From the NCBI RefSeq assembly GCF_000020025.1, contig NC_010628.1, positions 2,820,001 to 2,852,000 on the forward strand: a stretch of 32,000 nucleotides of DNA. The letters run 5' to 3'. Shown here one piece after another: positions 422-30,339 of the stretch (position 1 is its first letter; every line of letters begins with the position of its first letter). The position numbers were made by a program, and so were the translations under genes. Origin of the DNA: Nostoc punctiforme PCC 73102. GTDB taxonomy: Bacteria > Cyanobacteriota > Cyanobacteriia > Cyanobacteriales > Nostocaceae. The notes under the pieces were generated by a model that had not been told where the DNA came from, searched no databases, and saw nothing but the letters and a program-made list of their open reading frames with translations.

Positions 422-1112
422 GCACCATGCTTTAAAGTAAGTGAACGTAAATAATTGTCGTTAGGATAAGGCAATAGGTATAACAGTTTTAGCGTACTTC
501 ATTTTTCTTTACATAGTTTGATTTTATTCTGGCAACTTACTTAACCCGTAAACAAAATCGAATTTAACATTGCCAAAAATTGTCTGCAATGCTACGCTGT
601 GACTGAAATTGTACATACTATAAATATGTATAAATTTCAGAGTTAATTTAATCATTAGCTGGGTTAATTTAAGTAAAAAAATATTAACTTTTTTGTTAAC
701 CTGCATATAATACCCAATTAGCTCCGATAACTGAATCGTATAACTGAAATTTGTTGTTTAATCCAAATTAATCAGGCTTTAGTTTTGATTAAAGCCACAC
801 ATAACTTATTCATATAACCCCTTTCTAAACCTCCCGTCCATAGGGATAGAGGCTCTGATTCTTACTAACCTTACCTTTTAGTGAAGGGTTTAGGGGTAAT
901 GTTTGAGTGCAATTTGTACACGACAACAAATTATTATCGACACCATTTTTCTTGAATTTTCTGGAAAAGCTTTGATTGCTTTTGAATTCCAATACTAGTA
1001 GTTAAAAATCCTGCTGCATCATTAGAAATCTTGATTAGATTAGCTTTTGCCTCCATCTGTAATCTAGATGAAGTGTATATTTTCATGTCCATAATTGCTA
1101 AGGATGAATACA

Positions 1113-3446
1113 ATGACTCGTTTATCCAGCCCGATTGAAAACTTAAAAAGTTCCTATACAGTTGTAGTTATTGGTTCTGGTTATGGTGGTAGTATTGCCG
1201 CATCGCGTTTAGCACGAGCCGGACAGCAAGTGTGTATTTTAGAGCGAGGGAAAGAATTTCAACCTGGTGAATATCCCAAAACTCAAAGCAAAGCATTGGC
1301 ACAAATGCAGATAGATTTGCCACAACATCATCTAGGTTCGCACACAGCTTTGTATGACTTTCATGTGAATAAAGACATTAATGTCTTTATTGGTTGTGGA
1401 CTAGGTGGAACATCTTTAGTTAACGCCAATGTGTCATTACAAGCTGAACCGCGTGTATTTGCAGATTCACGCTGGCCAAAGGAATTGCGTGATGATGTCG
1501 GGACTTTATTAGCCGCAGGTTATCGTCGTGCAGAGGAAATGCTCAAACCTACTCCCTACCCTGAAAATTTTCCTCCACTACCAAAATTACAAGCTTTAGA
1601 AAAGTCGTCTAAATATTTGAATGAAAAGTTCTATCGTCCCCCCATCAATGTGACATTCCAAGATGGGGTGAATCATGTCGGTGTAGAACAAAACAAATGT
1701 AATCTCTGCGGTGATTGTGTTTCTGGCTGTAATAATAAAGCCAAAAACACCGTGTTGATGAATTACCTCCCAGATGCAAAAAACCACGGTGCAGAAATCT
1801 ATACACAAGTTTCCGTGCGACGAGTTGAACGTCAGGGGAATCGCTGGCTAGTCCATTACCAATTATTAAACACGGGACAAGAAAGCTTTAACGCTCCCAC
1901 AATGTTCGTCAGTGCTGATATTGTGATTCTGGCGGCTGGGACATTGGGATCTACAGAAATTTTGCTGCGTTCTCAAGCTGCTGGTTTAGCGGTATCTGAG
2001 AAATTGGGACATAATTTTACAGGCAATGGAGATGTTCTAGCTTTTGGCTATAACACCGAGCAAGTAATTAACGGTATTGGTTTTGGCGATCGCCCGGAGA
2101 ATGCCCAAGAACCAGTAGGGCCATGCATCACCGGTATCATAGATATGCGAGAACAGCCCCAATTAGATAACGGACTAGTTATTGAAGAAGGCTCAATTCC
2201 TGGAGGTCTGGCTGCTATATTACCCCAAACCCTTGCGGCGGCTGCCAAAATTTTAGGTAAAGACACCGACTCTGGTTTAGGCGATCGCATCGAAGAAAAA
2301 ATCCGCGAAGTTGAGAGTTTGACTCATGGTGCTTACACTGGTGCAGTCCGCAACACCCAAACCTACTTAGTCATGACCCATGATGATGCAGCCGGACAGA
2401 TGTACTTAGAAAATGACCGTCTCCGCATTAAATGGCAAGATGTAGGAAGCCAACCCATTTTTCAACGAGTCAATAATCGTCTTACAGAAGCCACCGAACC
2501 CCTAGGTGGTACACAAATTCCTAACCCCATTTGGTCTGATGCCTTTGGTCATGACTTAGTTACAGTCCATCCACTAGGAGGCTGTATCTTAGCGGAAGAT
2601 GCTGAACACGGTGTTGTCAACCATAAGGGACAAGTATTTGCTAGCAACCAAGGAACAAACGTCTACGAAAACTTATATGTCGCTGATGGTTCTATAGTTC
2701 CTCGGACATTAGGTGTAAATCCATTACTGACAATCTCTGCTCTAGCGGAACGCTGCTGTACCCTCATTGCTAAAGACCGGGGTTGGACGATTAATTATGA
2801 TTTGACTACCCCGCCCATAGTCAACGGTGACACTACCCGTTCTACCACAGTCGGTATTCAATTCACCGAGACCATGCGCGGCTACTTTTCTACCGCAGTC
2901 AAAGACGACAACTATCAGCCTGCATTCTGGCAAGGCAAACAAGACAACTCGCCTCTAGAGTTCACCGTTACAGTAATTGCCGATGACTTAGACAAACTAC
3001 TCAATGACCCCGAACACCTAGGGAAAATAGTTGGTATAGTTAAAGCCCCCATTTTATCACCAGAAGCCCTAACCGTCACCAATAGCGATTTTAATTTGTT
3101 TGTTGTCCAACAAGGCCAACAAAACACCAGACAAATGCGTTATCGCTTACACATGATGACGCAATCAGGACAACGTTATTACTTGAAAGGCTTCAAGCAA
3201 ATTCATGATGACCCAGGATTCGATGTTTGGTCTGACACCACCACACTATTCATCACCGTTTATGAGGGCGACAGTGAAAATGATCCCATCGTTGGTCAAG
3301 GCATTCTCAAAATTCAGCCGATGGACTTCATCAAACAAATGACCACTATGAAAGTTACCAACGCAGATACTATTGGGGAACGCCTACAAGCAATAGATAG
3401 ATTCAGTCGTTTCTTTGCCGGCACTTTAGCGGAAGTCTACATTTAA
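1113..3446 (+). CDS. ChoD/cholesterol-oxidase-like GMC family FAD oxidoreductase with an extra C-terminal domain
   Basis: The ORF spans 1095-3446, with TTG at 1095 and ATG at 1104 and 1113; AAGGA at 1100-1104 favours 1113. Motifs: VVVIGSGYGGS (GxGxxG FAD fold), GCGLGGTSLVNANV, the Cys cluster CNLCGDCVSGCNNKAKNT, and C-terminal HPLGGC...VADGSIVP, as in GMC oxidoreductases. The last ~195 aa (nt ~2850-3443) are homologous to the C-terminus of the patatin protein at 6114-7655. Confidence 0.85.
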   Translation: MTRLSSPIENLKSSYTVVVIGSGYGGSIAASRLARAGQQVCILERGKEFQPGEYPKTQSKALAQMQIDLPQHHLGSHTALYDFHVNKDINVFIGCGLGGTSLVNANVSLQAEPRVFADSRWPKELRDDVGTLLAAGYRRAEEMLKPTPYPENFPPLPKLQALEKSSKYLNEKFYRPPINVTFQDGVNHVGVEQNKCNLCGDCVSGCNNKAKNTVLMNYLPDAKNHGAEIYTQVSVRRVERQGNRWLVHYQLLNTGQESFNAPTMFVSADIVILAAGTLGSTEILLRSQAAGLAVSEKLGHNFTGNGDVLAFGYNTEQVINGIGFGDRPENAQEPVGPCITGIIDMREQPQLDNGLVIEEGSIPGGLAAILPQTLAAAAKILGKDTDSGLGDRIEEKIREVESLTHGAYTGAVRNTQTYLVMTHDDAAGQMYLENDRLRIKWQDVGSQPIFQRVNNRLTEATEPLGGTQIPNPIWSDAFGHDLVTVHPLGGCILAEDAEHGVVNHKGQVFASNQGTNVYENLYVADGSIVPRTLGVNPLLTISALAERCCTLIAKDRGWTINYDLTTPPIVNGDTTRSTTVGIQFTETMRGYFSTAVKDDNYQPAFWQGKQDNSPLEFTVTVIADDLDKLLNDPEHLGKIVGIVKAPILSPEALTVTNSDFNLFVVQQGQQNTRQMRYRLHMMTQSGQRYYLKGFKQIHDDPGFDVWSDTTTLFITVYEGDSENDPIVGQGILKIQPMDFIKQMTTMKVTNADTIGERLQAIDRFSRFFAGTLAEVYI

Positions 3447-3457
3447 CTTTAGGAGAT

Positions 3458-3527
3458 AGGGGGGCAGGAGGCAGGGGGCAGGGGGCAGGGAACAGGGGGA
3501 GCAGGGGAGAATTCGTAATTCGTAACT
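3458..3527. repeat. G-rich heptamer-type short tandem repeats (GGGGCAG variants) followed by AATTCGT x2
   Basis: Read directly: ggggggcaggaggcagggggcagggggcagggaacagggggagcaggggaga attcgtaattcgtaact. This is typical Nostocales intergenic STR. Confidence 0.7.
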
Positions 3528-3533
3528 CTTCAC

Positions 3534-3630
3534 GGGCTGAACCTTAGCTATCCGCTAACAGCACTCCTCATTGGCTAAACCTTAGCTATCCGCTAATAGC
3601 ACGGGCTAAACGCCCCGCTATCGCTAACGG
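3534..3630. repeat. Three degenerate ~30-38 nt direct repeats (gggctRaaccttagctatccgctaaYagcac)
   Basis: Copies at about 3534-3565, 3573-3602 and 3603-3630. They lie in the spacer between the oxidoreductase and hydrolase genes. Confidence 0.6.
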
Positions 3631-3674
3631 AACTGTTTTGCCCAATGCCCTAATCTTTTAACAAATCTATCAAA

Positions 3675-4724
3675 ATGAACACCACAACATATACTCAATC
3701 TTTACAAGAAAGAATAGTACCTTTTACTAGCAAAGATGGCTTTGAATGTAACTTAATTAACGTTAGAGGTGAAAAGCCTCCTTCTAAATCGCCTGTATTA
3801 CTAGCGCATGGTGCAGGAGTCAGAGCAAATATCTTTCGCGCTCCTGTGGATACTAATATAGTTGATTACTTAGTTGCTCATGGTTATGACGTATGGTTAG
3901 AAAACTGGCGTGCCAGTATTGACTTAAATCCTAATCATTGGACACTTGACCGAGCCGCAGTGAATGACCATCCACAAGCGGTGAAAACAATTGTCGAAGA
4001 GACGGGTTATGAAAAGATCAAAGCTATCATCCATTGTCAGGGATCTACTAGTTTCATGATGTCTGTGGTGGCTGGCTTAGTCCCACAAGTCAAAACTATT
4101 ATCAGCAATGCCGTTTCACTGCATCCGATTGTACCTTCATGGTCATCTTTCAAAATTAATTTTGCAGTACCAGCCGTCAATTTCCTCACCGATCATTTAA
4201 ACCCACAATGGCAAATAGATTCACCAAGTCTAGCTGCAAAAATCATCTCTCTGGTCGTGGGTCTTACCCATCACGAATGTAATAATTCAGTCTGTAAACA
4301 AGTTAGCTTTACTTATGGGACTGGCTTCCCGGCATTGTGGGAACACGCCAACCTCAACGAAGCCACCCACGAATGGCTAAAGCAGGAATTCGCCTATGTG
4401 CCGCTCAGTTTTTTCGCACAAATGTCTCAGTGCATCAATCGTGGACATCTAATTTCTGTTGATAACTTCCCCAATTTCCCAAAAGATTTTATTGCCCAAC
4501 CACCAAAAACCGATGCCCGTATTGCATTTTTTGCTGGGCAACTTAACCGTTGCTTTCTCCCACAAAGTCAGATAGAAACTTTTAAATATTTTGACTCTCT
4601 GCGTCCTAGTTACCATGCTTTACACGTTCTGGATAACTACAGTCATTTAGACATATTTATGGGTAAGAATGCAGCCAAAGATGTGTTTCCCTTAATGCTT
4701 GCAGAATTAGAAAAGACTGTTTGA
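3675..4724 (+). CDS. alpha/beta-fold hydrolase (lipase/esterase-like) with an atypical nucleophile elbow
   Basis: 349-aa ORF. It has PVLLAHGAGVRANIF (oxyanion region), IIHCQGSTSFM where GxSxG is expected, and a C-terminal YSHLDIFMG (candidate catalytic His). Confidence 0.75.
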   Translation: MNTTTYTQSLQERIVPFTSKDGFECNLINVRGEKPPSKSPVLLAHGAGVRANIFRAPVDTNIVDYLVAHGYDVWLENWRASIDLNPNHWTLDRAAVNDHPQAVKTIVEETGYEKIKAIIHCQGSTSFMMSVVAGLVPQVKTIISNAVSLHPIVPSWSSFKINFAVPAVNFLTDHLNPQWQIDSPSLAAKIISLVVGLTHHECNNSVCKQVSFTYGTGFPALWEHANLNEATHEWLKQEFAYVPLSFFAQMSQCINRGHLISVDNFPNFPKDFIAQPPKTDARIAFFAGQLNRCFLPQSQIETFKYFDSLRPSYHALHVLDNYSHLDIFMGKNAAKDVFPLMLAELEKTV

Positions 4725-4796
4725 AAAGTGCAGATTCCATTCTCTAGACCTGTGTTACCTCCCTCCACCAATAAATTTAATTATGTGTGAAAAAAT

Positions 4797-5705
4797 ATGA
4801 TACCTCAACGTTTAAAACAACAAACAGGACTTTATGCCCTAGTTGATGGCATACCTTTTCAGTTACCCGTTAATTCTGAACAGACACCAGCATTGATGGC
4901 GGTATTTCCGATTAACGCCGATCGCGCTAAAGAATTGATCCTAGCCAAAGAAGTACATCCTCTGCGACTATGGAATAATCAGGGGTTGTTAGTAATCACA
5001 GTGATTAATTATCAGATTACTGACATTGGTAAATACATCGAATTTAGTATTGCGATCGCCTGCACTCATGGCGCAAAACCAGCCCCGCCATTACTACCTG
5101 GTTTATTGATGCAACAGTACGGCACTGGGCAGTATGTACTTGATTTACCTGTTAGTACCGAAATTTCTGTCAAAGGGGGTAAAGGAATTTGGGGAATGCC
5201 CAAACATCAAGCTAACTTGGACTTTGTGATTGGCGATCGCACTGTCAGCAGTCAATATGATTTAGATGGGCAACTAGTGATGAAAATTGAAGTTGCCAAA
5301 CCCGCCAAAGCTTGGTTTCCCCTGAAAATGGGTGCAGCAAACTACTGTGCATTTCGCGGAATGTTGATGAAATCCGTGATTTACTTTCAAGGGAAATTGG
5401 GATTTTCGCTGTTTAAACCAGGTTCAGCCAAACTTACCATAGGCGATCATCCCCGTATCCAATCACTAAAACACCTAGAGATTAGCCCCGAACCTATATT
5501 TACAGGCTTTTTCCCGGAAATCACAGGGATGCTAGATGACCATTTGGAGAGTTGGTTTCTTGGCTACGACACACCCCCCACACAACAACCAGAAGGTTTA
5601 GAAAGTGTAGTTAATTTAGGTTTGGGTCAAGAATGGCTACCAGCGCCAAAGGCTTTGCCCAAGGATGATCAAGCCGAGATGTATGTAGTACCAATTAAAA
5701 ATTAA
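4797..5705 (+). CDS. acetoacetate decarboxylase (ADC)-like family protein
   Basis: 302-aa ORF. GKYIEFSIAI and VKGGKGIWGMPKHQANLDF resemble the Y-x-E and GRExWGxPKK motifs of the ADC family. The size fits. It starts 72 nt after the upstream gene. Confidence 0.6.
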   Translation: MIPQRLKQQTGLYALVDGIPFQLPVNSEQTPALMAVFPINADRAKELILAKEVHPLRLWNNQGLLVITVINYQITDIGKYIEFSIAIACTHGAKPAPPLLPGLLMQQYGTGQYVLDLPVSTEISVKGGKGIWGMPKHQANLDFVIGDRTVSSQYDLDGQLVMKIEVAKPAKAWFPLKMGAANYCAFRGMLMKSVIYFQGKLGFSLFKPGSAKLTIGDHPRIQSLKHLEISPEPIFTGFFPEITGMLDDHLESWFLGYDTPPTQQPEGLESVVNLGLGQEWLPAPKALPKDDQAEMYVVPIKN

Positions 5706-5713
5706 TCAAAAAT

Positions 5714-6133
5714 ATGATGAATAACGGTAAAGTACTCCACTTATCATTAATTGGCATTGCCATTTTCACCATTGTGAGTGGATTGTTGCAAATGGTTTTG
5801 CCTAGTTTGGTACTCTACATTGTCTCAGCAGAAGTAACCCCGACTAGCCAGCATTTTTTTGCCATCATCGGTATGTTTATGCTGCTGTTTAACGGCGCAC
5901 TGTTACAAGCATTAATCAGCCCACAACCCCAACCTATTGTCTTAATTTGGGCAGGATTACAAAAATTTGGTGCTTCAATAACCGTTTGTTTGGCTGTTAT
6001 CAGGCTAATTTTTTCCCCATTCGCGCTGCTAATTGCTGGTTTTGACCTGTTATCAGGAGTATTAATTTTCTGGTACTTGTTTCGCTTGCGTACTTTTACA
6101 CCAGGATACACTTATGAGCAACCAACCGCATAA
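5714..6133 (+). CDS. small integral membrane protein (about 4 TM segments), function unknown
   Basis: 139-aa hydrophobic ORF. It starts 8 nt after the ADC-like gene and overlaps the patatin gene start by 20 nt. Confidence 0.6.
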   Translation: MMNNGKVLHLSLIGIAIFTIVSGLLQMVLPSLVLYIVSAEVTPTSQHFFAIIGMFMLLFNGALLQALISPQPQPIVLIWAGLQKFGASITVCLAVIRLIFSPFALLIAGFDLLSGVLIFWYLFRLRTFTPGYTYEQPTA

Positions 6134-7655
6134 ACCTTACGGCACTCCTGAACCAACATACTCAGGGAATAAACGTTCCTTGATTTTAGCTGGTGGTGGA
6201 ATGCGTGTAGCTTACCAAGCTGGAGCTATCCGCGCCTTAATCGAATCAGGACTGTGTTTTAATCATGCGGATGGTACTTCCGGCGGTACGATGAATTTAG
6301 CAATGCTGCTATCTGGACTATCGCCGATTGAGATGTGCGATCGCTGGCAGACTTTGAATGTTAAAGATTTTGTCTCCTTTATCCCTCTAGAAAAATACCT
6401 CAAAGCCTGGGATTTGTTATCTATGGGAGATGCAGATGGCATTATCGATCGCGTTTTCCCCCACTTGGGAATTGATATCAGCAAAATCAATGCCTCGGAG
6501 GGAATGCAAGGTACATTTAATGTTTGCAACTTTACCCACAAAACTAATGAAGTCATTCCCCACGATCGCTTAGATTTAGATTTATTGGTTGCAGGGATTT
6601 CTCTCCCCATCTTTATGCCACCTGTACAAAAAGGTGATTATCTATACATGGATTCCGTGTGGATTAAAGATGTTAATCTCATGGAAGCGGTGCGCCGGGG
6701 TGCAGATGAACTTTGGGTATTGTGGTGCATTGGCAATAGTAGCGAATATCAAACGGGAATTTTTAATCAATATGTCCACATGATGGAACTGAGTGCGAAC
6801 GGGGCATTTTTTGAAGAGTGCGATCGCATCAATGAAATCAACCAGAGAATTTTGCAAGGGGAGACAGTCTACGGACATACCCAACCGATCAAACTCCACC
6901 TCATCAAACCCGCTTATCCTTTACCTCTTGATCCTGATTACTATTTGGGAAACATTGATGGTGCAACTTTGGTTGATATGGGTTACGCCGATGCTAAACA
7001 ATATTTGCAAACCATGTCACCCGCAGGATTGCCCTTCCAGCCAGACGTGACCCGAATGCACAATAATTTGCCAGGAATGACTTTCCGCGAAAGCATGGCG
7101 GGTGCGTTTGTTTTAAATGAGACTGACCCGATTCAGGGTGCAGCAAAAGGCAAAGCGCACAATTCCTCACTCTCATTGCAACTGACCATTAACATTTGTG
7201 ACTTAAAACGTTTTTTGGGTGATACTACTTTTACTGCTAGTATTGCTGGTAACATTAGTTTTGCGAATTTTGGCGAACACATTCCCTTCAAAAGAGGCGT
7301 GTTTAACCTGTTTGCTCATGACCATAATCCCGGATATAAATACATTACTTATGAACTTGCTTTTGAACATGGTAATCAAGATTACTACTTAGTAGGCAAG
7401 AAAGAACTGCATAACGATCCGGGATTTGATTTGTGGCAAGACATGACAACTATCTATACTTACCTACATCAAGGTACAGATAACAACAGTCCCATTATTG
7501 GTTCAGGAATTTTAACCCTAGATGTGGGTGACGTAGCCAAGTGCGTTTCCGGGTGGCGAATTACTAACGCCAAGTCACTGACAGAGAAAACTACATTATT
7601 GGCAGAGTTTGGTAGTTTTTTCTGGGGCAATATTTGGGAAACTTACCAACCGTAA
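6114..7655 (+). CDS. patatin-like phospholipase with the same C-terminal domain as the GMC oxidoreductase
   Basis: LILAGGGMRVAYQAG (GGGxR oxyanion motif), GTSGG (GxSxG serine) and YMDSVW (candidate Asp of the dyad). The C-terminal ~190 aa (nt ~7070-7652) align with 2850-3443, for example HNDPGFDLWQDMTTIY against HDDPGFDVWSDTTTLF. Confidence 0.85.
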   Translation: MSNQPHKPYGTPEPTYSGNKRSLILAGGGMRVAYQAGAIRALIESGLCFNHADGTSGGTMNLAMLLSGLSPIEMCDRWQTLNVKDFVSFIPLEKYLKAWDLLSMGDADGIIDRVFPHLGIDISKINASEGMQGTFNVCNFTHKTNEVIPHDRLDLDLLVAGISLPIFMPPVQKGDYLYMDSVWIKDVNLMEAVRRGADELWVLWCIGNSSEYQTGIFNQYVHMMELSANGAFFEECDRINEINQRILQGETVYGHTQPIKLHLIKPAYPLPLDPDYYLGNIDGATLVDMGYADAKQYLQTMSPAGLPFQPDVTRMHNNLPGMTFRESMAGAFVLNETDPIQGAAKGKAHNSSLSLQLTINICDLKRFLGDTTFTASIAGNISFANFGEHIPFKRGVFNLFAHDHNPGYKYITYELAFEHGNQDYYLVGKKELHNDPGFDLWQDMTTIYTYLHQGTDNNSPIIGSGILTLDVGDVAKCVSGWRITNAKSLTEKTTLLAEFGSFFWGNIWETYQP

Positions 7656-7830
7656 ATTCCAAATTAAACCTCTGCTGAGTGGAGTATAAAGGTTTAAGGG
7701 TGTAGGGAAAATACATTTTCATGTTTAGTTGTGCAATTTTCTCTTGAATCCTTCCCGCCTTCTCCCAAAGGGAGACGCTAAAAGCGATCTGCCTTCTGCC
7801 TTCTTTCACAACTTTTCAGGAGAAATTAAC

Positions 7831-10035
7831 ATGAGCGATCGCCTTATGCCTTTACCCTCATCATTCTTATTCGGTGTTGCAACTGCTGACCATCAGTGTG
7901 AAGCTTACGATTCCCAGTTTGAAGATATTCGGGATGTATGGGAACGTCGTCGCGGTATTACGGTCAGGGGTCGAGCCACTGACTTTTGGCATCGCTACGC
8001 TGAAGATATTGCCTTAGCTCAGTCCCTTGGTTGCAAGTCTTTCCGGTTTTCGATCGCTTGGTCACGGGTAGAACCTGAACCCGGTAAGTTCAGTGAAGAA
8101 GCTTTTGAACATTATCGCCAAGTAATTGAAACTATCAGATCGCATGGTTTAGAACCAATTGTAACTCTGCATCACTTCACCCATCCCATCCATGTAGAAG
8201 CACGGGGGGGTTTAACTGCGCCAGAATTTCCAGCTATTTTTGCTAACTACGCCACAGAAGTCGCCAAGCGTTTGGGTCATTTGGCACGTTATTGGATTAG
8301 CTTTAACGAACCTAGCCAATTAATTTACGGTTACATCAAGCCTTGGTGGGAAAGAGCCTATTTTATGCCCCCAGGTTTAGAGCGCGGTGCAACTATTGCC
8401 GATCAAATGACCGCCGTGCAGAAACTCATGCGGAATTTGTTTGTCTCCCATACACGCGCCAGAAATATCCTCAAAGAGTACAACCCAGATGCTCAAGTGG
8501 GAGCAAACCCCATGTTATTGGGTCTGCCTCTATGGTTGCAGAAATTGGTGGATCACAATGTCACTAATCTGCGTCGTCCCGAAGATATGATTTCTCAGGG
8601 TAAACGTTTTACTGAGCGCAGTTTGTTGGAAAAAGGAAAAGTTGATGTTGTCATTGCTAATTTGACTATTACCGCCGAGCGACAACAGCAAGTAGCGTTT
8701 TCGGAAACTTATTATCAGGCGGGGCAATTTCTCTTAGTCAAAGCCACCAGTCCCATTCAGCAACCAGAAAATCTGGCTCAGAAAACAGTAGCAGTTATCA
8801 AAAGTGCGACGGCAGAATCTACCATAGAATACCTGTTACCCAGAGTTGAAGTCAAAGTAGTAGAAGATTACGCTGATGCCTTGCAAGCCTTGGATTATGA
8901 GCAAGTGAGCGCCATTCTTGCAGATGACACAATTCTCTTGGGTCTGATGAGACAACAACCAGGGCAATATCGACTGGTGGGTAAAAATGGTGAAGGGCTG
9001 ACAGTAGAGAACTATGGCGCAGCTGTAGTTAAAGGCGATCGCGCCTTCTTGAATATTGTAGATACAGTAGTGCGACAGTTTAAAGAATCCGGGGCTTGGC
9101 AAGCTAGCTATAGTCATTACTTCCCTAATCAACCCGTCCCACCTGTACCGAAAATCGGCAGACGTTCAACCCTAGCTGACATCACCACAGGCGGATCTTC
9201 TAGTCCAACTATCGGACAGCCTCAACCCGGTACACCACTGCGACGCATTCAAGACCGTGGTTATTTAGTTGTCGCAGTCAAAGAAAACGTACCTGGGTTT
9301 GGCTACCGCGACCCCAAAACCGGAGAATTTAGCGGCTTAGAGATTGATTTAGCGCGTTTAATCGCCAAGCAAATCTTTGGCGATCCCAGCAAAGTGAAAT
9401 TTGTCGCCGTTTCCACCCAACAACGCTTACCCGTACTGCGATCGCTCACCCGCATCTTTGACCCAATTTTCAAGATTTTCAGCGTACTTTCCACATCACT
9501 GACAAGTAACTGGTGGCACTTAGGTATGGCTGGGAAATTACCCACATTCCTCTGTCCTCAAGAATGTGTAGGTCAACAAGATTTTGTTGGTTTTGACTAT
9601 TACTGGGGGATTAGCAATCTTCGACTCAACCGCATTCAACAATTAATGGATGCTGCTTTTGGACGTTTTAGTAATGCGCCAGTTTGGTCTGGTGTTCTCT
9701 ACGATATGCTCAAATTCCACGCCCAGTTATTCCCCGATAAAGAAATTATGATTATTGAGAATGGCTGTGTAGAAGTAGCCGATAAAGTCGTCAAGCGCGA
9801 AGACTACATTCGCCAGCATCTCCAACAAGTGCAACGCGCTCGTCAAGACGGGATAAACGTCATCGGTTACGTCTCCTGGTGCATCACCTCCAACCGCGAG
9901 TGGGGTCTGAAATTTGGCCCAGATAGCGATTTTGGACTATATCACATTGACCTAGATACAGACCCAGAACTCAAACGCCAACCAACCCCAGCCGCTAACT
10001 TATACCGCGATATCATCAAACAAAACAGCGTCTAA
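7831..10035 (+). CDS. glycoside hydrolase family 1 (beta-glucosidase-like) carrying an inserted, apparently circularly permuted solute-binding-protein (SBP_bac_3-like) domain
   Basis: ATG at 7831 is preceded by CAGGAG at 7817-7822; the longer ORF from 7729 lacks homology-like sequence. GH1 motifs: FLFGVATADHQCE, FRFSIAWSRVEP, LHHFTHP, FNEP (acid/base Glu codon 8308-8310), DFVGFDYYWG, IIENG (nucleophile Glu codon 9757-9759) and WCITSNREWG. The SBP-like segments lie between nt ~8635 and ~9445. Confidence 0.85.
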   Translation: MSDRLMPLPSSFLFGVATADHQCEAYDSQFEDIRDVWERRRGITVRGRATDFWHRYAEDIALAQSLGCKSFRFSIAWSRVEPEPGKFSEEAFEHYRQVIETIRSHGLEPIVTLHHFTHPIHVEARGGLTAPEFPAIFANYATEVAKRLGHLARYWISFNEPSQLIYGYIKPWWERAYFMPPGLERGATIADQMTAVQKLMRNLFVSHTRARNILKEYNPDAQVGANPMLLGLPLWLQKLVDHNVTNLRRPEDMISQGKRFTERSLLEKGKVDVVIANLTITAERQQQVAFSETYYQAGQFLLVKATSPIQQPENLAQKTVAVIKSATAESTIEYLLPRVEVKVVEDYADALQALDYEQVSAILADDTILLGLMRQQPGQYRLVGKNGEGLTVENYGAAVVKGDRAFLNIVDTVVRQFKESGAWQASYSHYFPNQPVPPVPKIGRRSTLADITTGGSSSPTIGQPQPGTPLRRIQDRGYLVVAVKENVPGFGYRDPKTGEFSGLEIDLARLIAKQIFGDPSKVKFVAVSTQQRLPVLRSLTRIFDPIFKIFSVLSTSLTSNWWHLGMAGKLPTFLCPQECVGQQDFVGFDYYWGISNLRLNRIQQLMDAAFGRFSNAPVWSGVLYDMLKFHAQLFPDKEIMIIENGCVEVADKVVKREDYIRQHLQQVQRARQDGINVIGYVSWCITSNREWGLKFGPDSDFGLYHIDLDTDPELKRQPTPAANLYRDIIKQNSV

Positions 10036-11454: not shown

Positions 11455-12185
11455 CTATGTTAAATTTGGATATAAACGCTCCATTTTTCGGCGAGCATCT
11501 TTGGTTTGAAAACCCCAATAAACACTAGCTTTTTGCTGATTACGTTTTTTCTCCCAAGCGGCAATCTCAGAAGTTAATGTTTCTGCATTAGGAATACGCC
11601 GTTCTAAACATTGGCGAGATAAAACAGATAATTCGATTTCTACCTGATTCAGCCCTTCGGGTTCGCCAGTTGCTTCAAGTCGGGGAACCCGCCCAACGCA
11701 CTGGCTCACCAAGAAGCGTGTTTAGGAGTATAGTGAAACTCTAACTTTTGAATAATTCGACGTGCTTCTTCTGGTGGAAAAACTTCATATAATGCATTGG
11801 GTGTATGAATATTCAAGTTATCAACTACTAAACGAATAACATCGGCATCTCGGTAGGAAACATCTACTAAATTTTTCATTTGTTTAGCAAAATCGGCTTT
11901 AGTTCGACGTTCTGTAACTTCGATATGCCGCCATCCAGCCAAGGGTTGAAAACATGCGAATAAATTTACTGTCCCGTTACGTTTATACTCAAAATCATAA
12001 CGTTCAGGTTGCTCTGGCTGTGGTGGCAAAGGAAGTCTTACTTTTTCTACTAATTGGTATGGACGTTCATCAAAGCAGACTACAGGGCGTTTAGGATCAT
12101 AAGGCTCATTGTATAAATCCAGCACATCTTCCATTCGGAAAACATATTCTGCGTTAACTTCAGGAATACACCATTGTTCTTTCAA
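11455..12185 (-). pseudogene. IS630-family transposase DDE domain, split by a 56-nt insertion
   Basis: ORF 11706-12185 ends ...HYTPKHASW, then a stop. ORF 11455-11712 resumes with LNQVEIELSVL after 56 extra nucleotides. The expected contiguous sequence is ...KHASWLNQVEIE..., so the domain is broken between the second Asp and the Glu of the catalytic triad. Confidence 0.8.
11653..11708 (-). repeat. 56-nt hairpin-containing mini-insertion inside the transposase gene
   Basis: On the minus strand the insert reads tgagccagtgcgttgggcgggttccccgacttgaagcaactggcgaacccgaaggg. It contains GGGTTC...GAACCC inverted repeats. Its length is not a multiple of 3 and it introduces a TGA. The boundaries are ambiguous by a few nt. 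Confidence 0.6.
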
Positions 12186-12622
12186 CCAAGGCTTAATTTC
12201 ATTTTTTTTAAAGTTTGACGTACTGTTTCATCTGAGATTGAATCTATGATACCAACGTTCACTAAATGATCTGCTAATAATTGCATTGTCCAACGCACTC
12301 TTCCTTCTGGCGGATTAGAACAAGCTGTTGCAATCAAAAATGCTTCTTGCTTTTCATCTAATTTTTTATGTTTTGGTGGATGAACTTCATCCTTTAAAGC
12401 AAAATCTAACCCTCCAATGACAAATTTTTCTCGTATTCGTTGCACTGTTGCAACATGCGCTCTAACTATGCTAGCGATCGCTTGATCCGTTTCTCCTTCG
12501 GAAGCCATCAAAAGAATGTTTGCACGGCTTATGGTTCTTGCCTTATGCTTACCTTTCTTAATTATCGATTGCAGTTGGGAAACTTCATCTTCATTCAAGT
12601 CAACAATGTACTTTTTTGCCAT
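12182..12622 (-). CDS. IS630-family transposase, N-terminal helix-turn-helix part (orfA)
   Basis: 146-aa ORF. It ends just after an A8 run (T8 at 12202-12209 on the + strand). The -1 frame continues as [14 protein letters not shown], the usual junction of IS630 transposases. Confidence 0.8.
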
Positions 12623-26138: not shown

Positions 26139-28202
26139 ATGAGCGATCGCATAATTGGGCGCAAGAAATCAGCCGCATCAACTTTTACGAATCCGTCGCT
26201 TGCCTCACCAGGTATTCCGACACTAGCGAACCCAATACACGGCTTTGGTTCACAAATCAATACTGCCCCGCTCCAAACAGTAACTGAAGTAGCCCCAGAG
26301 CTTCAAGAGGCACAGTCTGCTGATGGGCAATTATTAGAACCAGAAGCGATCAAAGAAAAACCCCTTAGTCACGACATAAGTCGCATATCATTACGTCGTC
26401 CACAGCCAAAACTTACCGTTGGTCAGCCTGGAGACAAATACGAACAAGAAGCGGAGATGAATGCTCAGGCATTTACGCACAAGCAAGATGTTTACTTTGA
26501 TGCGGGGAAGGCTCCTACCCATAAATTGACTCATTTGGTGCAGCAAACTGGTGATGCAGCAAGCCATAAGGTTATTCAGCGCTATCAGGCAGGGGAATCA
26601 GGACATGGCTCAATAGAGAAAAAAGGCTTGATATTAGCTGGCTTCACTGCCGACGAAGCAGCAGAGGCTTATCTAGGTAATTGGATGCGTGATTTATCAC
26701 AACTCGGCCCAGATATGTTTCCTTTGGTGGAACTGCTGGGAATGGGGGAATTTGGCAAGCCAATCGACCAGAGTAAACTGGGAACCTATGTTCCTTCAGA
26801 ACACATGGATAATCCCGACGGAGGTAATACCGTTGAAGATCCGACTTCAACAACCACCGCAAAGGATGTTGATGCTCGTAATGAAAATAAAAAGCAACTA
26901 TCCGAATCCCAAAAGAAAGACCAAGAAGCAGCTGATGCAGCCTATGCCGAGATCAAAGCTGCCGCAGCAAAGAATCGTCTGCCAGCTTATATTGAGCGCG
27001 GCAAGTTTATGGCTAAGAGAAAATTGGTAGAGGCAATCAAAAAAGGTGATACATCAGAGGGACGGGAGGAGATGAGTAGTGCTTTACATGCTATAGAAGA
27101 TTATTTTTCTCATACCAACTTTACTGAAGCAGCCATCTGGGTACTGGCGAAGGAAAACCCAGCTAAATATAAGCCTCTGATGGCTAAGATGTCCCAGACA
27201 ACTTTAGGGATAGGTACAGCAACGGTGGGTGGATTAGATAAAAAAGGACTACCCCAAATTATCAGTGGCACTTATGTTGCAGGTGCTAACAACATGGTTA
27301 GTAAAATTGAATTACTCAAAACCGAACTAGAGAGTGGGGCTTTAACTGTAGCCTTAGTAAAAGGCTTGATGATGAAAGGAGGCATTACAGCAGATGTTCT
27401 TGCCAATAAGTTAGGTGAGAAGATGGGAGTTAAACCAATCTTCCGTACTGTTGAAGGTGGGATAGGTGCAGTAGTGGGTGGTGTAGAAGGAGCAGTTAAA
27501 GGTACTGCTAGCGGTGCGAGAACAGGCGGGGCGGCAGGTCGGAAAATCGGCGGGCTTTTTGGTACTCTTGGCGAAGTTGTGGGTGAAGAAATTGGCGAGC
27601 AAGTTGGTGGTGTAGTTGGCGGTGTATCCGGTGGTGTATCCGGTGCTAGAGCAGGCAAAGCCGCAGGTGAAGAAATGGGCGAACAGGATGCCGAAGCCAT
27701 TCTTAAAGCAGCTGGCTTTGCGATTAAAGGTGGTATGGTTGTAATTACGGCCGGGACTATGGCTACCTTACTTACACTCTTCCCAGTAATTGCAGCGGAT
27801 TTGGCAGCAGTTGTCAGTGTGGCGAAAAGTAAATTAGGACAAAAACTATTAGATGCTTATGCTGAGAAAAAAGTGGCGGAGTCCACTAAAGAGGCGAAAG
27901 CCAAAGGTTTGACTGGCCCCACTCACTCAGAGCTTGCCAAGGATGCTCCCGACCACCCGCTCTTTGATGCTTCTGCCTCGCTAGCTGTGGAGGCGGTGAA
28001 AGGAGTTGGTGTTGCCATGAAGGTAGCGTGGGCACAGAATAAGACGAATCCTCCATCGACAGAACCTGTTGGCACAGAGGCAGTTACGAACCAGGTTGAT
28101 AAATATGTCTGCGCTTTAGATGGTGATGGGTGGTGGCGACCCATTATCGAGAAACAAGCAACGGCGGCTGGGATTACTACTTCTGGTGGTGCAGACAATT
28201 AA
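26139..28202 (+). CDS. DUF4157-leader protein with truncated/degenerate peptidase motif, HET-C-like domain, glycine-zipper region and TM segment
   Basis: The leader PLSHDISRISLRRPQPKLTVGQPGDKYEQEAE is of the DUF4157 type. HKLTHLVQQTG replaces HELTHVVQQTG. HET-C-like motifs: GESGHGSIE, YLGNWMRDLSQL, LGTYVPSEHMDNPDGG and HAIEDYFSHTNFTEAAI. Gly-rich repeats lie at 27451-27693, and a hydrophobic segment GGMVVITAGTMATLLTLFPVIAADLAAVV follows. Confidence 0.8.
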   Translation: MSDRIIGRKKSAASTFTNPSLASPGIPTLANPIHGFGSQINTAPLQTVTEVAPELQEAQSADGQLLEPEAIKEKPLSHDISRISLRRPQPKLTVGQPGDKYEQEAEMNAQAFTHKQDVYFDAGKAPTHKLTHLVQQTGDAASHKVIQRYQAGESGHGSIEKKGLILAGFTADEAAEAYLGNWMRDLSQLGPDMFPLVELLGMGEFGKPIDQSKLGTYVPSEHMDNPDGGNTVEDPTSTTTAKDVDARNENKKQLSESQKKDQEAADAAYAEIKAAAAKNRLPAYIERGKFMAKRKLVEAIKKGDTSEGREEMSSALHAIEDYFSHTNFTEAAIWVLAKENPAKYKPLMAKMSQTTLGIGTATVGGLDKKGLPQIISGTYVAGANNMVSKIELLKTELESGALTVALVKGLMMKGGITADVLANKLGEKMGVKPIFRTVEGGIGAVVGGVEGAVKGTASGARTGGAAGRKIGGLFGTLGEVVGEEIGEQVGGVVGGVSGGVSGARAGKAAGEEMGEQDAEAILKAAGFAIKGGMVVITAGTMATLLTLFPVIAADLAAVVSVAKSKLGQKLLDAYAEKKVAESTKEAKAKGLTGPTHSELAKDAPDHPLFDASASLAVEAVKGVGVAMKVAWAQNKTNPPSTEPVGTEAVTNQVDKYVCALDGDGWWRPIIEKQATAAGITTSGGADN

Positions 28203-28250
28203 TAATGTTCCAACTCGTTTTAGGGTGAATTTATAGCTTTAGTAAAATGT

Positions 28251-28316
28251 GCGATCGCATTACAAAATAATTTCCACTTAAGTCCATAGCGATCGCAATT
28301 AGATAAATTTTATGAT
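28251..28316 (+). promoter_or_regulatory. Conserved upstream control element, copy 2: HIP1 - 30 nt - HIP1 - 14 nt - TATGAT
   Basis: gcgatcgcattacaaaataatttccacttaagtccatagcgatcgcaattagataaattttatgat parallels 26032-26097. Confidence 0.5.
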
Positions 28317-28365
28317 GTGTGTTATCAATATGCCTTGGTTGAGCCATAAATGAAGGAAGGGTGAT

Positions 28366-30339
28366 ATGAGCAATGACGGACAACAAGCTTCTGGGCATCT
28401 ACGCATAGTTCAGCACCAAAAAGCAGGTATATCCACTGTTCTAAATCCGTCCCTTACCTCATCAACTATTCCCACGCTGGCTTCTCCAATGCGTGGCTTT
28501 GGTTTACAAACAAATAATCCTCCAATTCAAAGACTAACTGAGGCATCAACTGAGCTTCAAGAAGTGCAGTCTGCTGATGAGCAATTTTTGGAACCAGAAG
28601 CCGTCAAACAACAGCCCCTTAGTCATGATATTAGTCGCATATCTTTGCATCGTCCCCAGGCAAAACTCACCGTTGGTGCGCCAGACGACCATTATGAGCA
28701 GGAAGCCGATCGAGTTGCCGATCGGATTATGCGAATGGCTGAACCAGAGCCAATAGGTTTACAGAATACACAGACTCAAGACCAAGTGCAAACTAAGCCT
28801 CTAGCCTCTGCCATAACTCCTTTAGTGCAACGGGAGGCAATGCCAGAAGAGGAAGAGGAACTACAAACGAAACTTATTAATGCACCTATCCAAAGAGAGA
28901 TTTTACCAGAAGAAGAATTACAAACTAAGCGATCGCTACAACTCGCTACCAATGACAGCTTCCAAACTGGGGACAACTTTGAGAGTCGCCTAAACAGCAG
29001 TGAAGGTGGAGGAAGCCCGTTACCAGATACAGTGCGTTCTTTCATGGAACCACGTTTTGGTACAGATTTTAGTCAAGTACGCGTACATACAGGTACTCAA
29101 GCGGTACAAATGAATCAGGATTTAAATGCCCAGGCATTTACGCACCAGCAAAACATTTTCTTTGGTGCGGGTAAGTCACCAGGTAATGATGCATTAACCG
29201 CCCATGAACTGACTCATGTGGTGCAGCAGACAGGAACAGCCCAGAGAAAATTGATTCAACGGGCAATTAACCCCACATACGACCTGACACACGGAATTTT
29301 TGAAGTAAATGCCACACCCAACGGCGCGAGTCTACCGATTACTATTCGTTTTAAACCCAAAACCACTGCTCCCTACTCTAACCAGATTGGACTGATTCAG
29401 ATTGTCCGTCTGACAAATGCTACAGGTACAAATGTCGAACCTCAGTCTTTACCTGCTGCTAGTGGTGCTAGCCTCCGTACCACTGCTGATGCAACCACGG
29501 GAGTTGAAGGCGGATATTTCACTGATGCGCTGCATAATGATGCACCTGCTCATGGTGGTACAGGAACCAATGCCCCAGCCGGAAGTGCATTACCTGCCCA
29601 GTACCCCTTTGGCAACGACCCAGCCCAACCCAATCCCGCAACCCCTGGACTTTCACGGCCCTCTTCTAGTGGTGCAAGCGGAGCCACTATTGGTTACAAA
29701 CGCTCCGATGACCCCACTGATATCAAAGCAGCAGAACTAACCGATGCTCCCGGAGGGGCTGGTGAGTTCAACTTCGACTTTCAGACGGTGGCTAAAGGAG
29801 AAGACACCATGACAACTTACGGAGCGCTTCATTGGGGCTTCCAAATCCGTGCTGGCAAAGTTGAGAACGATCGTGCATCAGCACAAGATGGTCAATCCGC
29901 CACCTTTGATGCAGCTTTGCAGAAGCACCAGGATTTTTACGTACATGAACCAGTCATTTTTTACTTTGATTTCGACAGCGACCAACTGAGTTCCAGCGAA
30001 ACAGGCAAGATTGATACATTCTTAGACTACCTGCGGCGATTCCCTGATGTCAAAGTAACTCCTGAAGGCTTTGCTGACAGGCGTGGCGGTGCATCTGGGC
30101 ACAACCTGGATCTATCTTTACGCAGAGCGCAGGCAGTGGGAGCAGCCCTGCGTGCTAAGGGTGTAGCTGAAGCTCAAATTAGTGCTGTTACTATCGGCTC
30201 TGGTTCAACCGAAGACTTTACCCCTGATGCCACTACTAACCAAGATACAGAAGCAAATCGCCGGGGTAATCGCCGAGTCGTCTTGAGCTTTGAGCATGTG
30301 CCAGCAGCAGCTCCAGCAGGGGGAGGAGGGACACCGTGA
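28366..30339 (+). CDS. DUF4157 zinc-metallopeptidase-like protein with an unassigned central domain and a C-terminal OmpA-like peptidoglycan-binding domain
   Basis: KLTVGAPDDHYEQEADRVADRIM, LPDTVRSFMEPRFGTDFSQVRVHTG and NAQAFTHQQNIFFG...LTAHELTHVVQQTG give a full DUF4157 with HExxH. The C-terminus FYFDFDSDQLS...GFADRRGG...NLDLSLRRAQAV...NRRGNRRVVLSF is the OmpA_C pattern. Confidence 0.85.
   Translation: MSNDGQQASGHLRIVQHQKAGISTVLNPSLTSSTIPTLASPMRGFGLQTNNPPIQRLTEASTELQEVQSADEQFLEPEAVKQQPLSHDISRISLHRPQAKLTVGAPDDHYEQEADRVADRIMRMAEPEPIGLQNTQTQDQVQTKPLASAITPLVQREAMPEEEEELQTKLINAPIQREILPEEELQTKRSLQLATNDSFQTGDNFESRLNSSEGGGSPLPDTVRSFMEPRFGTDFSQVRVHTGTQAVQMNQDLNAQAFTHQQNIFFGAGKSPGNDALTAHELTHVVQQTGTAQRKLIQRAINPTYDLTHGIFEVNATPNGASLPITIRFKPKTTAPYSNQIGLIQIVRLTNATGTNVEPQSLPAASGASLRTTADATTGVEGGYFTDALHNDAPAHGGTGTNAPAGSALPAQYPFGNDPAQPNPATPGLSRPSSSGASGATIGYKRSDDPTDIKAAELTDAPGGAGEFNFDFQTVAKGEDTMTTYGALHWGFQIRAGKVENDRASAQDGQSATFDAALQKHQDFYVHEPVIFYFDFDSDQLSSSETGKIDTFLDYLRRFPDVKVTPEGFADRRGGASGHNLDLSLRRAQAVGAALRAKGVAEAQISAVTIGSGSTEDFTPDATTNQDTEANRRGNRRVVLSFEHVPAAAPAGGGGTP

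Follow-up and report, generated by a model that had tools for sequence, protein, structure and literature searches.

In MltF, a module resembling the solute-binding protein (SBP) domain SBP_bac_3 is fused to a lytic transglycosylase, which it is reported to activate allosterically. Comparable couplings have been engineered, such as the switches that combine maltose-binding protein with beta-lactamase. Further engineered switches of a binding protein and an enzyme include a chimera of xylanase and xylose-binding protein (PMC4896006), and switches have been built by domain insertion with periplasmic binding proteins (PMC6335823). The gene described here is located in a stretch of 32,000 nucleotides from Nostoc punctiforme PCC 73102 (contig NC_010628.1, positions 2,820,001 to 2,852,000 of the forward strand), which is referred to as the window. 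The product predicted for window positions 7831 to 10035 (+ strand) is a retaining GH1 beta-glycosidase of the cytoplasm. Between strands beta5 and beta6 of its barrel, the helical connection is almost certainly interrupted by a complete, circularly permuted SBP_bac_3 domain.

All motifs of the gene were found in one frame, within the open reading frame (ORF) listed at 7729 to 10035 (+). The start was set to the ATG at 7831, which is the likely start codon because the N-termini of homologues agree with it. The motifs lie in the order FNEP (8302-8313), GKVDVV (8635), ILADDT (8914), PNQPVPP (9124), RGYLVV (9256), VKFVAV (9394), DFVGFDYYWG (9580-9609), and IIENG (9751-9765). The gene was divided into the following parts, given by window coordinates and by residue number in amino acids (aa):

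7831 to 10035, + strand: whole gene, GH1 with the nested permuted SBP domain, 734 aa, stop codon included in the coordinates.
7831 to 8526, + strand: GH1 N-terminal half, barrel strands beta1 to beta5, aa 1-232, PF00232 profile positions 5-218.
8527 to 8622, + strand: entry connector, two helices after beta5 (first part of the alpha5 region), aa 233-264, AlphaFold helices at 234-245 and 250-261.
8623 to 9123, + strand: first SBP piece (canonical middle and C-terminal part), aa 265-431, PF00497 profile positions 53-130, with a Foldseek match to 5eyf.
9124 to 9255, + strand: linker rich in Pro, Gly, and Ser, leading from the native SBP C-terminus to the native N-terminus, aa 432-475.
9256 to 9444, + strand: second SBP piece (canonical N-terminal part), aa 476-538, PF00497 profile positions 1-56.
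9445 to 9579, + strand: return connector, helices with the invariant NWWHLGMAGKLP motif and a CPxEC motif, aa 539-583, AlphaFold helices at 539-556 and 558-566.
9580 to 10032, + strand: GH1 C-terminal half, beta6 to beta8, aa 584-734, PF00232 profile positions 338-452.

The GH1 profile PF00232 scored 191.7 bits against the whole protein (gathering cut-off 22.6), far above chance, and aligned in two stretches: aa 8-225 to profile positions 5-218, and aa 621-733 to positions 338-452. Positions 218-338 of the profile were left unaligned by Pfam. The N-terminal half contains the acid/base residue Glu160 of FNEP (8308-8310), Q22, H115, N159, and the motif KPWW (aa 170-173). The C-terminal half contains DYYWG (Y590, Y591), the nucleophile Glu643 of IIENG (9757-9759), W683, and E690/W691 of TSNREW. 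Residue conservation was determined from 81 full-length relatives that represent all the phyla listed below, and Q22, H115, N159, E160, Y590, Y591, E643, W683, E690, and W691 were invariant in all 81; the predicted catalytic centre is intact. The Glu in NxEW, here NREW, is a mark of GH1 enzymes that act on non-phosphorylated glycosides. TIGR03356, the equivalog model for GH1 beta-glucosidases, scored 188.8 bits, which is under its cut-off of 478.5, and the name beta-glucosidase is therefore not warranted by this model.

An AlphaFold2 model of the whole protein, made with 121 homologues, had a mean predicted local distance difference test value (pLDDT) of 89.9 and a predicted template modelling score (pTM) of 0.87, and contained the full series of SBP secondary-structure elements in the insert. 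When the model was compared with the PDB by Foldseek, the top 50 matches were all GH1-type enzymes, with target-normalised TM scores of 0.65-0.73 for the single-domain ones, and the (beta/alpha)8 barrel fold was seen in the model as well as in its matches. In the alignment to the canonical GH1 enzyme 6z1h, query residues 6-226 and 566-733 were paired with chain residues 9-225 and 278-449. The 52 aa between these blocks in 6z1h (226-277) correspond to 339 aa in the query (227-565), a net gain of about 287 aa.

The SBP profile PF00497 scored 92.7 bits against the whole protein (gathering cut-off 26.4), also far above chance, and was aligned out of order: aa 265-431 to profile positions 53-130 (to 132), and aa 479-538 to positions 1-56. 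Scanned singly, the first piece gave E = 5e-18 and the second E = 2e-8 to 4e-8. Because the chain carries profile positions 53-130 ahead of positions 1-56, the SBP_bac_3 domain is read as a circular permutant. The first piece spans strand beta3 of lobe I, the hinge, lobe II, and the C-terminal helices, and the second spans beta1, alpha1, beta2, and the start of alpha2. For comparison with canonical proteins, the insert was rejoined in canonical order (aa 470-538 followed by aa 265-432). Positions 4-237 of the rejoined query were aligned as a single domain with positions 11-237 of the 245 residues of 5eyf (E = 2.9e-38), and the PDB sequence search gave similar matches to GlnH of Mycobacterium tuberculosis, PEB1a, and the ancestral protein AncQR. 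The artificial junction showed only a 4-residue indel against 5eyf, so the permutation cut is placed inside helix alpha2, just ahead of the GKVDVV strand. Entry and exit are neighbours in a canonical SBP, and a single site on the barrel is therefore enough to carry the entire two-lobed domain.

The insert was also modelled separately (pLDDT 80.8). This model was superposed on Glu-bound 5eyf with a root-mean-square deviation of 1.9 A over 173 columns, which is the furthest that Foldseek, being order-dependent, reached on the permuted insert. With the tandem substrate-binding domains SBD1-SBD2 of GlnPQ, 278-281 columns were aligned, running from the C-terminal part of one domain into the N-terminal part of the next. 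Both the rejoined alignment to 5eyf and the separate model indicate a complete two-lobed SBP fold. The features of SBP_bac_3 proteins that the insert lacks are the canonical order of elements, export or an extracytoplasmic location, and linkage to an ATP-binding cassette (ABC) transporter.

The original prediction, made by reading the letters of the window, had described a GH1 gene with its motifs split and the SBP_bac_3 blocks between them in swapped order. FNEP, DFVGFDYYWG, and IIENG do lie in one frame at the places that it gave, and the domain search that it proposed returned the GH1 and SBP_bac_3 profile coordinates out of order, as it had expected. The structure prediction, which it had likewise proposed, yielded a confident model with one complete permuted fold, not two unrelated partial segments, and the new ends of the domain fall within one continuous canonical helix, in agreement with the idea that permutation brings the ends of the insert together. 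Two of its figures had to be corrected. The distance between FNEP and DFVG, put at about 330 aa, is 422 aa, and SBP homology begins at about 8623 instead of 8560, the segments 8527-8622 and 9445-9579 being helices of the GH1 side.

The connectors were fixed in length across the family while the linker varied. The entry connector had 28-32 aa (ratio of nonsynonymous to synonymous substitution rates, dN/dS, 0.06-0.28) and the return connector 45-46 aa; linker lengths ranged from 15 to 71 aa (median 41), with a Pro content of 16%. The linker had a dN/dS of 0.06-0.49; a value was obtained for it in six comparisons, and in four of these it ranked highest among the seven regions. The confidence of the whole-protein model fell only at this Pro-rich linker and at the junctions, and the linker was the least confident part of the insert (10-residue pLDDT means of 63-78 over aa 441-470). 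The NWWHLGMAGKLP motif in the return connector is the counterpart of the canonical GH1 segment ahead of beta6, and alignment to canonical GH1 resumes at aa 566. This motif (aa 560-571) and KPWW are Trp-rich motifs of the family that canonical GH1 enzymes do not have. The CPxEC pair lies just ahead of beta6 (window 9553-9567, aa 575-579); C575 was found in 81 of 81 relatives and C579 in 71, and the pair could be a redox or metal site.

Residues of the putative ligand pocket were mapped on M. tuberculosis GlnH through the rejoined-insert alignment, and their roles were taken from the description of that protein (PMC6069109). In GlnH, the alpha-amino and alpha-carboxylate groups of the ligand are held by S164, R169, and D250, and the side-chain carboxylate by R147, T162, and W232, the last being Tyr in other members (PMC6069109). 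T279 corresponds to S164 and R284 (8680-8682) to R169, each present in 72 of the 81 relatives. D365 (8923-8925), equivalent to D250, and R532 (9424-9426), equivalent to the side-chain carboxylate residue R147, were each found in 80. Y347 takes the place of W232 (Tyr in 53 relatives, His in 16, another residue in 12), and position 277, equivalent to T162, is Asn in the window protein (Thr in 36 relatives, Asn in 13). The lobe-II stretch is S325, A326, and T327, with the family consensus Ser-Ser-Thr, and E504 of the second SBP piece was present in all 81 relatives. The putative Asp/Glu-type pocket is largely retained, and the ligand is probably an alpha-amino acid of the Asp, Glu, Asn, or Gln type; among the ligands named in the original prediction (amino acids, opines, and compatible solutes), the pocket residues point to this group. 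The residues for the side-chain carboxylate are suggestive of the Asp/Glu-specific subgroup. Specificity in the Asp/Glu SBP family is hard to predict from sequence (PMC6069109).

The pocket differed in a Verrucomicrobiales clade (loci L075-L083; Luteolibacter, Prosthecobacter, and Akkermansiaceae). R284 was replaced there by Asp or Gly together with a 2-residue deletion, and Ser-Ser-Thr by Ile-Gly-Asn, which suggests that the ligand has changed or that binding has been lost. In six of these loci, a gene for a LysM-domain protein was located directly upstream.

Ahead of the first GH1 strand, the window protein has only 11 residues, and most of the relatives' ORFs that have their start on the contig have 3-20 ahead of strand beta1. 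Longer N-terminal stretches among relatives came from ORFs read from a more upstream start codon. No obvious signal peptide and no lipobox were found in the relatives' ORFs with a start on the contig. Genes for ABC transporter permeases or ATPases were absent from the 32-kb window and from the neighbour families that recurred across 84 related loci. Because the N-termini are short and carry no obvious signal peptide, and because ABC transporter genes are absent nearby, the protein is predicted to be cytoplasmic, as had been proposed from the lack of a signal peptide.

More than 120 protein clusters covered 89-100% of the query (most of them 98-100%) at identities of 55-98%. Relatives were detected in 123 genomes in a scan of one genome per species, and 79 loci from these genomes were inspected. 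The loci came from Cyanobacteria (36; mostly Nostocales, and also Crocosphaera, Planktothrix, and Cyanosarcina), Verrucomicrobiota (20, with the complete genome of Luteolibacter sp. AS25), Chloroflexota (11), Vulcanimicrobiota (4), Eisenbacteria, Acidobacteriota, and Proteobacteria (2 each), and one unclassified bacterial metagenome-assembled genome (MAG). The remaining locus, L054, is a full-length member with 51% identity on a 207-kb contig of a Methanotrichaceae archaeon MAG, and reflects either a transfer between domains of life or an error of binning. With the exception of a few genes truncated at contig ends, the matches in the 79 loci were close to full length (starting at query residues 1-18 and ending at 725-734), with identities of 39-99%. 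The closest species genomes were those of Nostoc strains (98-99% identity). The exact window protein was present on 18 contigs, the longest of 8.23 Mb, and the gene was found in the complete genomes of Chlorogloeopsis PCC 6912 and Luteolibacter AS25 and on a 6.6-Mb chromosome record of Nostoc PCC 7524. As judged from these homologues, the architecture is conserved in at least eight phyla, which answers the earlier suggestion that its phylogenetic distribution be mapped and speaks against an assembly or frameshift artefact.

Against Nostocales orthologues, dN/dS was 0.03-0.12 in the GH1 halves and 0.09-0.20 in the SBP pieces, values that indicate purifying selection on the insert. Pairwise distances in the GH1 and SBP parts were correlated with r = 0.95 and a slope of 1.48, the SBP part evolving about 1.5 times faster. 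This correlation indicates a single fusion followed by joint inheritance of the two parts.

The best explanation of the protein as a whole, for which the chances are evenly balanced, is a GH1 enzyme whose permuted SBP domain tunes the glycosidase by binding an amino acid. Conservation of the amino-acid pocket and purifying selection on the insert make a sensor function plausible, and the gating of glycosidase activity by a ligand sensor, as originally predicted, is plausible in the same sense. The ligand, an alpha-amino acid whose side chain is acidic or an amide, would bind between the two lobes. R532 is located about 7 residues from the exit of the insert, and T279 and R284 are located 14 and 19 residues from its entry. 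Since the junctions sit only a few residues from these lobe-I pocket residues, the two helical connectors of invariant length would relay ligand binding and the closing of the lobes to the beta5/beta6 region, where the sugar-binding and catalysis-supporting residues Y590 and Y591 are located. Glycosidase activity would then be raised or lowered with the amino-acid or nitrogen status of the cell. Ligand identity, coupling, and direction of regulation in this scheme are what we infer, and the proposal that the insert is a cytoplasmic amino-acid sensor with allosteric control over the glycosidase is put forward with belief slightly outweighed by doubt.

Several observations weigh against regulation by amino-acid binding. 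The junctions were modelled with lower confidence (pLDDT 73 for aa 261-270, and 78 and 68 within aa 541-560), and the domains may be tethered flexibly instead of being tightly coupled. Cytoplasmic glutamate is normally millimolar, and a Glu sensor with the affinity of a typical SBP would for this reason be permanently saturated; the real ligand may be rarer than Glu, or the affinity much weaker. The Verrucomicrobiales clade has retained the domain without R284 and the lobe-II Ser/Thr motif, so the amino-acid pocket is not universally required. Lastly, gene neighbourhoods are not conserved outside Nostocales and give no pathway.

Among the alternatives, the SBP domain could be part of the substrate site, clamping the aglycone of a glycoconjugate where this resembles an amino acid (as in peptide-linked sugars or glycosylated amino acids) and presenting the glycosidic bond to the GH1 centre. 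This is thought unlikely. It would suit loop C, the GH1 loop that follows beta6 and normally gives the aglycone pocket its shape, which is short and fixed at 25-27 aa across the family, as well as the unaligned profile positions 218-338 and the family Trp-rich motifs KPWW and NWWHLG adjoining the insert junctions; the pTM of 0.87, too, suggests a defined arrangement of the domains. However, the insert branches off at the side of the barrel, in the alpha5 region, and not from one of the classical aglycone loops, and the binders of the alpha-amino, alpha-carboxylate, and side-chain carboxylate groups (PMC6069109) are all kept, a set that in homologous SBPs buries a free amino acid fully and leaves no obvious atom for a sugar.

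It is rather improbable that the insert is mainly structural, serving oligomerisation, protein docking, or stabilisation, with the pocket as a relic that no longer signals. The faster evolution of the SBP part, the retention of the domain in the Verrucomicrobiales clade that lost R284 and the lobe-II motif, and the lack of conserved partner genes pointing to a pathway are what such a role would lead one to expect. Yet the pocket is among the most conserved positions of the insert throughout the phyla (D272, S291, Y294, and E504 in 81 of 81 relatives, D365 and R532 in 80, R284 in 72), dN/dS in the SBP pieces is no higher than the 0.09-0.20 given above, and six residues forming a ligand-specific set would hardly have persisted in a relic pocket among relatives as distant as about 40% identity.

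ABC transporters normally have SBP_bac_3 proteins as their partners outside the cytoplasm, and a homologue is entered in one database record as 'ABC transporter substrate-binding protein'; it is nevertheless very improbable that the enzyme is exported for scavenging and that its SBP part passes the released product to an ABC importer, given the missing signal peptide and lipobox, the short stretch of about 3-20 residues ahead of beta1 in most ORFs with a start on the contig, and the absence of ABC permease and ATPase genes from the window and from the recurring neighbour families. An artefactual origin of the ORF (through mis-assembly, through a frameshift that joined separate GH1 and SBP genes, or through decay into a pseudogene) has nothing in its favour beyond the unusual domain order and an IS630-like transposase remnant about 1.4 kb downstream, and it is rejected with near certainty, as the same architecture occurs in 123 species genomes, on complete chromosomes, and, as the exact protein, on 18 contigs, with invariant catalytic residues, low dN/dS indicating strong purifying selection, and a confident AlphaFold model.

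The GH1/SBP gene is the end of an operon-like run on the same strand with five genes upstream of it:

Within 1095 to 7655, + strand, gene 1: cholesterol-oxidase-like GMC oxidoreductase, 783 aa, with a C-terminal extension of about 230 aa.
Within 1095 to 7655, + strand, genes 2 and 3: an alpha/beta hydrolase and an acetoacetate-decarboxylase-like (ADC-like) protein.
Within 1095 to 7655, + strand, genes 4 and 5: a 139-aa ORF without a family and a 513-aa patatin-like lipase.

In other Nostocales, the GMC oxidoreductase and the GH1/SBP gene were kept at the ends and the interior between them was different. The interiors of Nostoc PCC 7524 (L001, 1-9959) and Chlorogloeopsis (L003, 1-9872) contained DUF6765, alpha/beta hydrolases, a protein of about 480-505 aa, a RoxA-like di-haem cytochrome c, a P450, and a metallo-beta-lactamase-fold protein, and the region resembles an oxidative gene island whose content varies between two constant ends. 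In Chloroflexota (L048, L049) and Vulcanimicrobiota (L050, L072), too, GMC homologues were found close to the GH1/SBP gene, some of them apparently fused to further sequence (about 960-980 aa). This linkage is a weak hint at a lipid-like or sterol-like glycoside as the substrate. A conserved operon that reveals the substrate was considered and rejected: the recurrence of GMC is too weak for a pathway call, and the other neighbours differ between phyla. A promoter and terminator scan around the GH1/SBP gene gave nothing above the shuffled background.

Downstream of the gene, an IS630-family transposase extends over three frames at 11455-12622 (-), either as a decayed copy or as a frameshifted gene:

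12182 to 12622, - strand: helix-turn-helix (HTH) piece.
11706 to 12185, - strand: DDE_3 piece.
11455 to 11712, - strand: C-terminal piece.

At 26139-30339 (+), the window contains a gene for a 687-aa protein with a fungal-type Het-C domain, followed by one for a 657-aa protein with eCIS_core (PF13699) and OmpA.

In an exhaustive search with the insert only, full-span matches were of two kinds, members or fragments of the GH1 family and proteins with 2-4 tandem canonical SBP_bac_3 domains, in which the permuted query reads over the domain boundary. No second host protein for the permuted SBP domain was present among the best 150 matches of this search. Four matches (P0123, P0125, P0139, and P0140) were large proteins with 2-4 tandem SBP_bac_3 domains and an FGE-sulfatase domain, which resembles formylglycine-generating enzyme; one of them also has an AAA-like domain and TPR repeats. 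Because of the tandem-SBP matches and the match to tandem GlnPQ, a duplication-then-truncation route to the permutant fits, that is, an origin from a tandem SBP pair.

The architecture is apparently undescribed: no account of it was found in full-text literature searches, no PDB chain with both GH1 and SBP domains was retrieved by PDB sequence or Foldseek searches, and no dedicated NCBIfam model matched, every match being to a generic GH1 or SBP model and under its curated cut-off. Homologues are named "family 1 glycosylhydrolase" in databases or, through COG matches, as a hybrid of beta-glucosidase and amino-acid-binding protein. It is proposed, tentatively and with doubt prevailing, that the family is a natural ligand-gated GH1 that ties the release of sugar from beta-glycosides to nitrogen or amino-acid status, that it arose once, probably from a tandem SBP pair, that at least eight phyla have since retained it or passed it among themselves, and that it is the first natural counterpart of engineered switches. 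If the insert works as a sensor, evolution has reached the recipe of the engineers, circular permutation and insertion of a periplasmic-type binding protein, and the family would offer two connectors already optimised by nature, together with a place for insertion in the TIM barrel, the commonest enzyme fold. A cytoplasmic, enzyme-embedded role would be added for SBP_bac_3, which is otherwise known from transport, receptors, and kinases. A GH1 subfamily of Nostoc and of soil and freshwater bacteria, uncharacterised although widespread (more than 700 protein clusters, and 123 species genomes in the present scan) and now hidden under the generic label, would also come into view.

Canonical GH1 enzymes (ancestral 6z1h, Thermotoga BglA 1od0, and BGL167 4r27) share with the Nostoc protein the (beta/alpha)8 fold (Foldseek TM about 0.7, target-normalised), the NEP acid/base and ENG nucleophile glutamates, and the full sugar-binding set with the Glu of NxEW. 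No solved GH1 is more than about 30% identical to it, and canonical GH1 enzymes, unlike it, have neither the second domain of about 287 extra residues between beta5 and beta6 nor the 8-residue KPWW insertion after NEP with the short loop after beta6. The insert resembles Asp/Glu SBPs (Enterococcus faecium 5eyf, M. tuberculosis GlnH 6h1u, and Campylobacter jejuni PEB1a 2v25) in its two-lobed fold, in 29-38% identity, and in the retained ligand-group residues. It differs from them in being permuted at alpha2 and nested, with its native termini tied by a linker and with no signal peptide, lipid anchor, transporter, or GlnX-type partner. Over its full length, the permuted insert can be aligned with the tandem SBDs of GlnPQ (6h30), which illustrates how a tandem pair can give rise to a permutant. 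The GlnPQ domains themselves are canonical in order, extracytoplasmic, and involved in transport.

The ionotropic glutamate receptors and GluR0 (N. punctiforme core, 2pyy) also use an SBP_bac_3-type domain as a built-in sensor, and GluR0 nests two domains; its nesting, however, is inverse, with the channel placed inside the binding domain. MltF is the nearest natural functional analogue, since it unites an SBP_bac_3-type module and a glycan-cleaving domain in one polypeptide, and NCBIfam NF008112, presumably the MltF model, matches the insert under its curated cut-off. The MltF module is, in contrast, periplasmic, attached to the outer membrane, unpermuted, and fused end to end at the N-terminus, and its partner has the SLT lysozyme-like fold and not that of GH1, so the resemblance is functional only. 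The engineered switches, the closest analogues in design, use the same combination of domain insertion and circular permutation to couple ligand closure to an enzyme, a glycoside hydrolase included. They are laboratory constructs in which usually the enzyme is placed into the binding protein, whereas in the Nostoc family a permuted binding protein is placed into the enzyme, and this across phyla.

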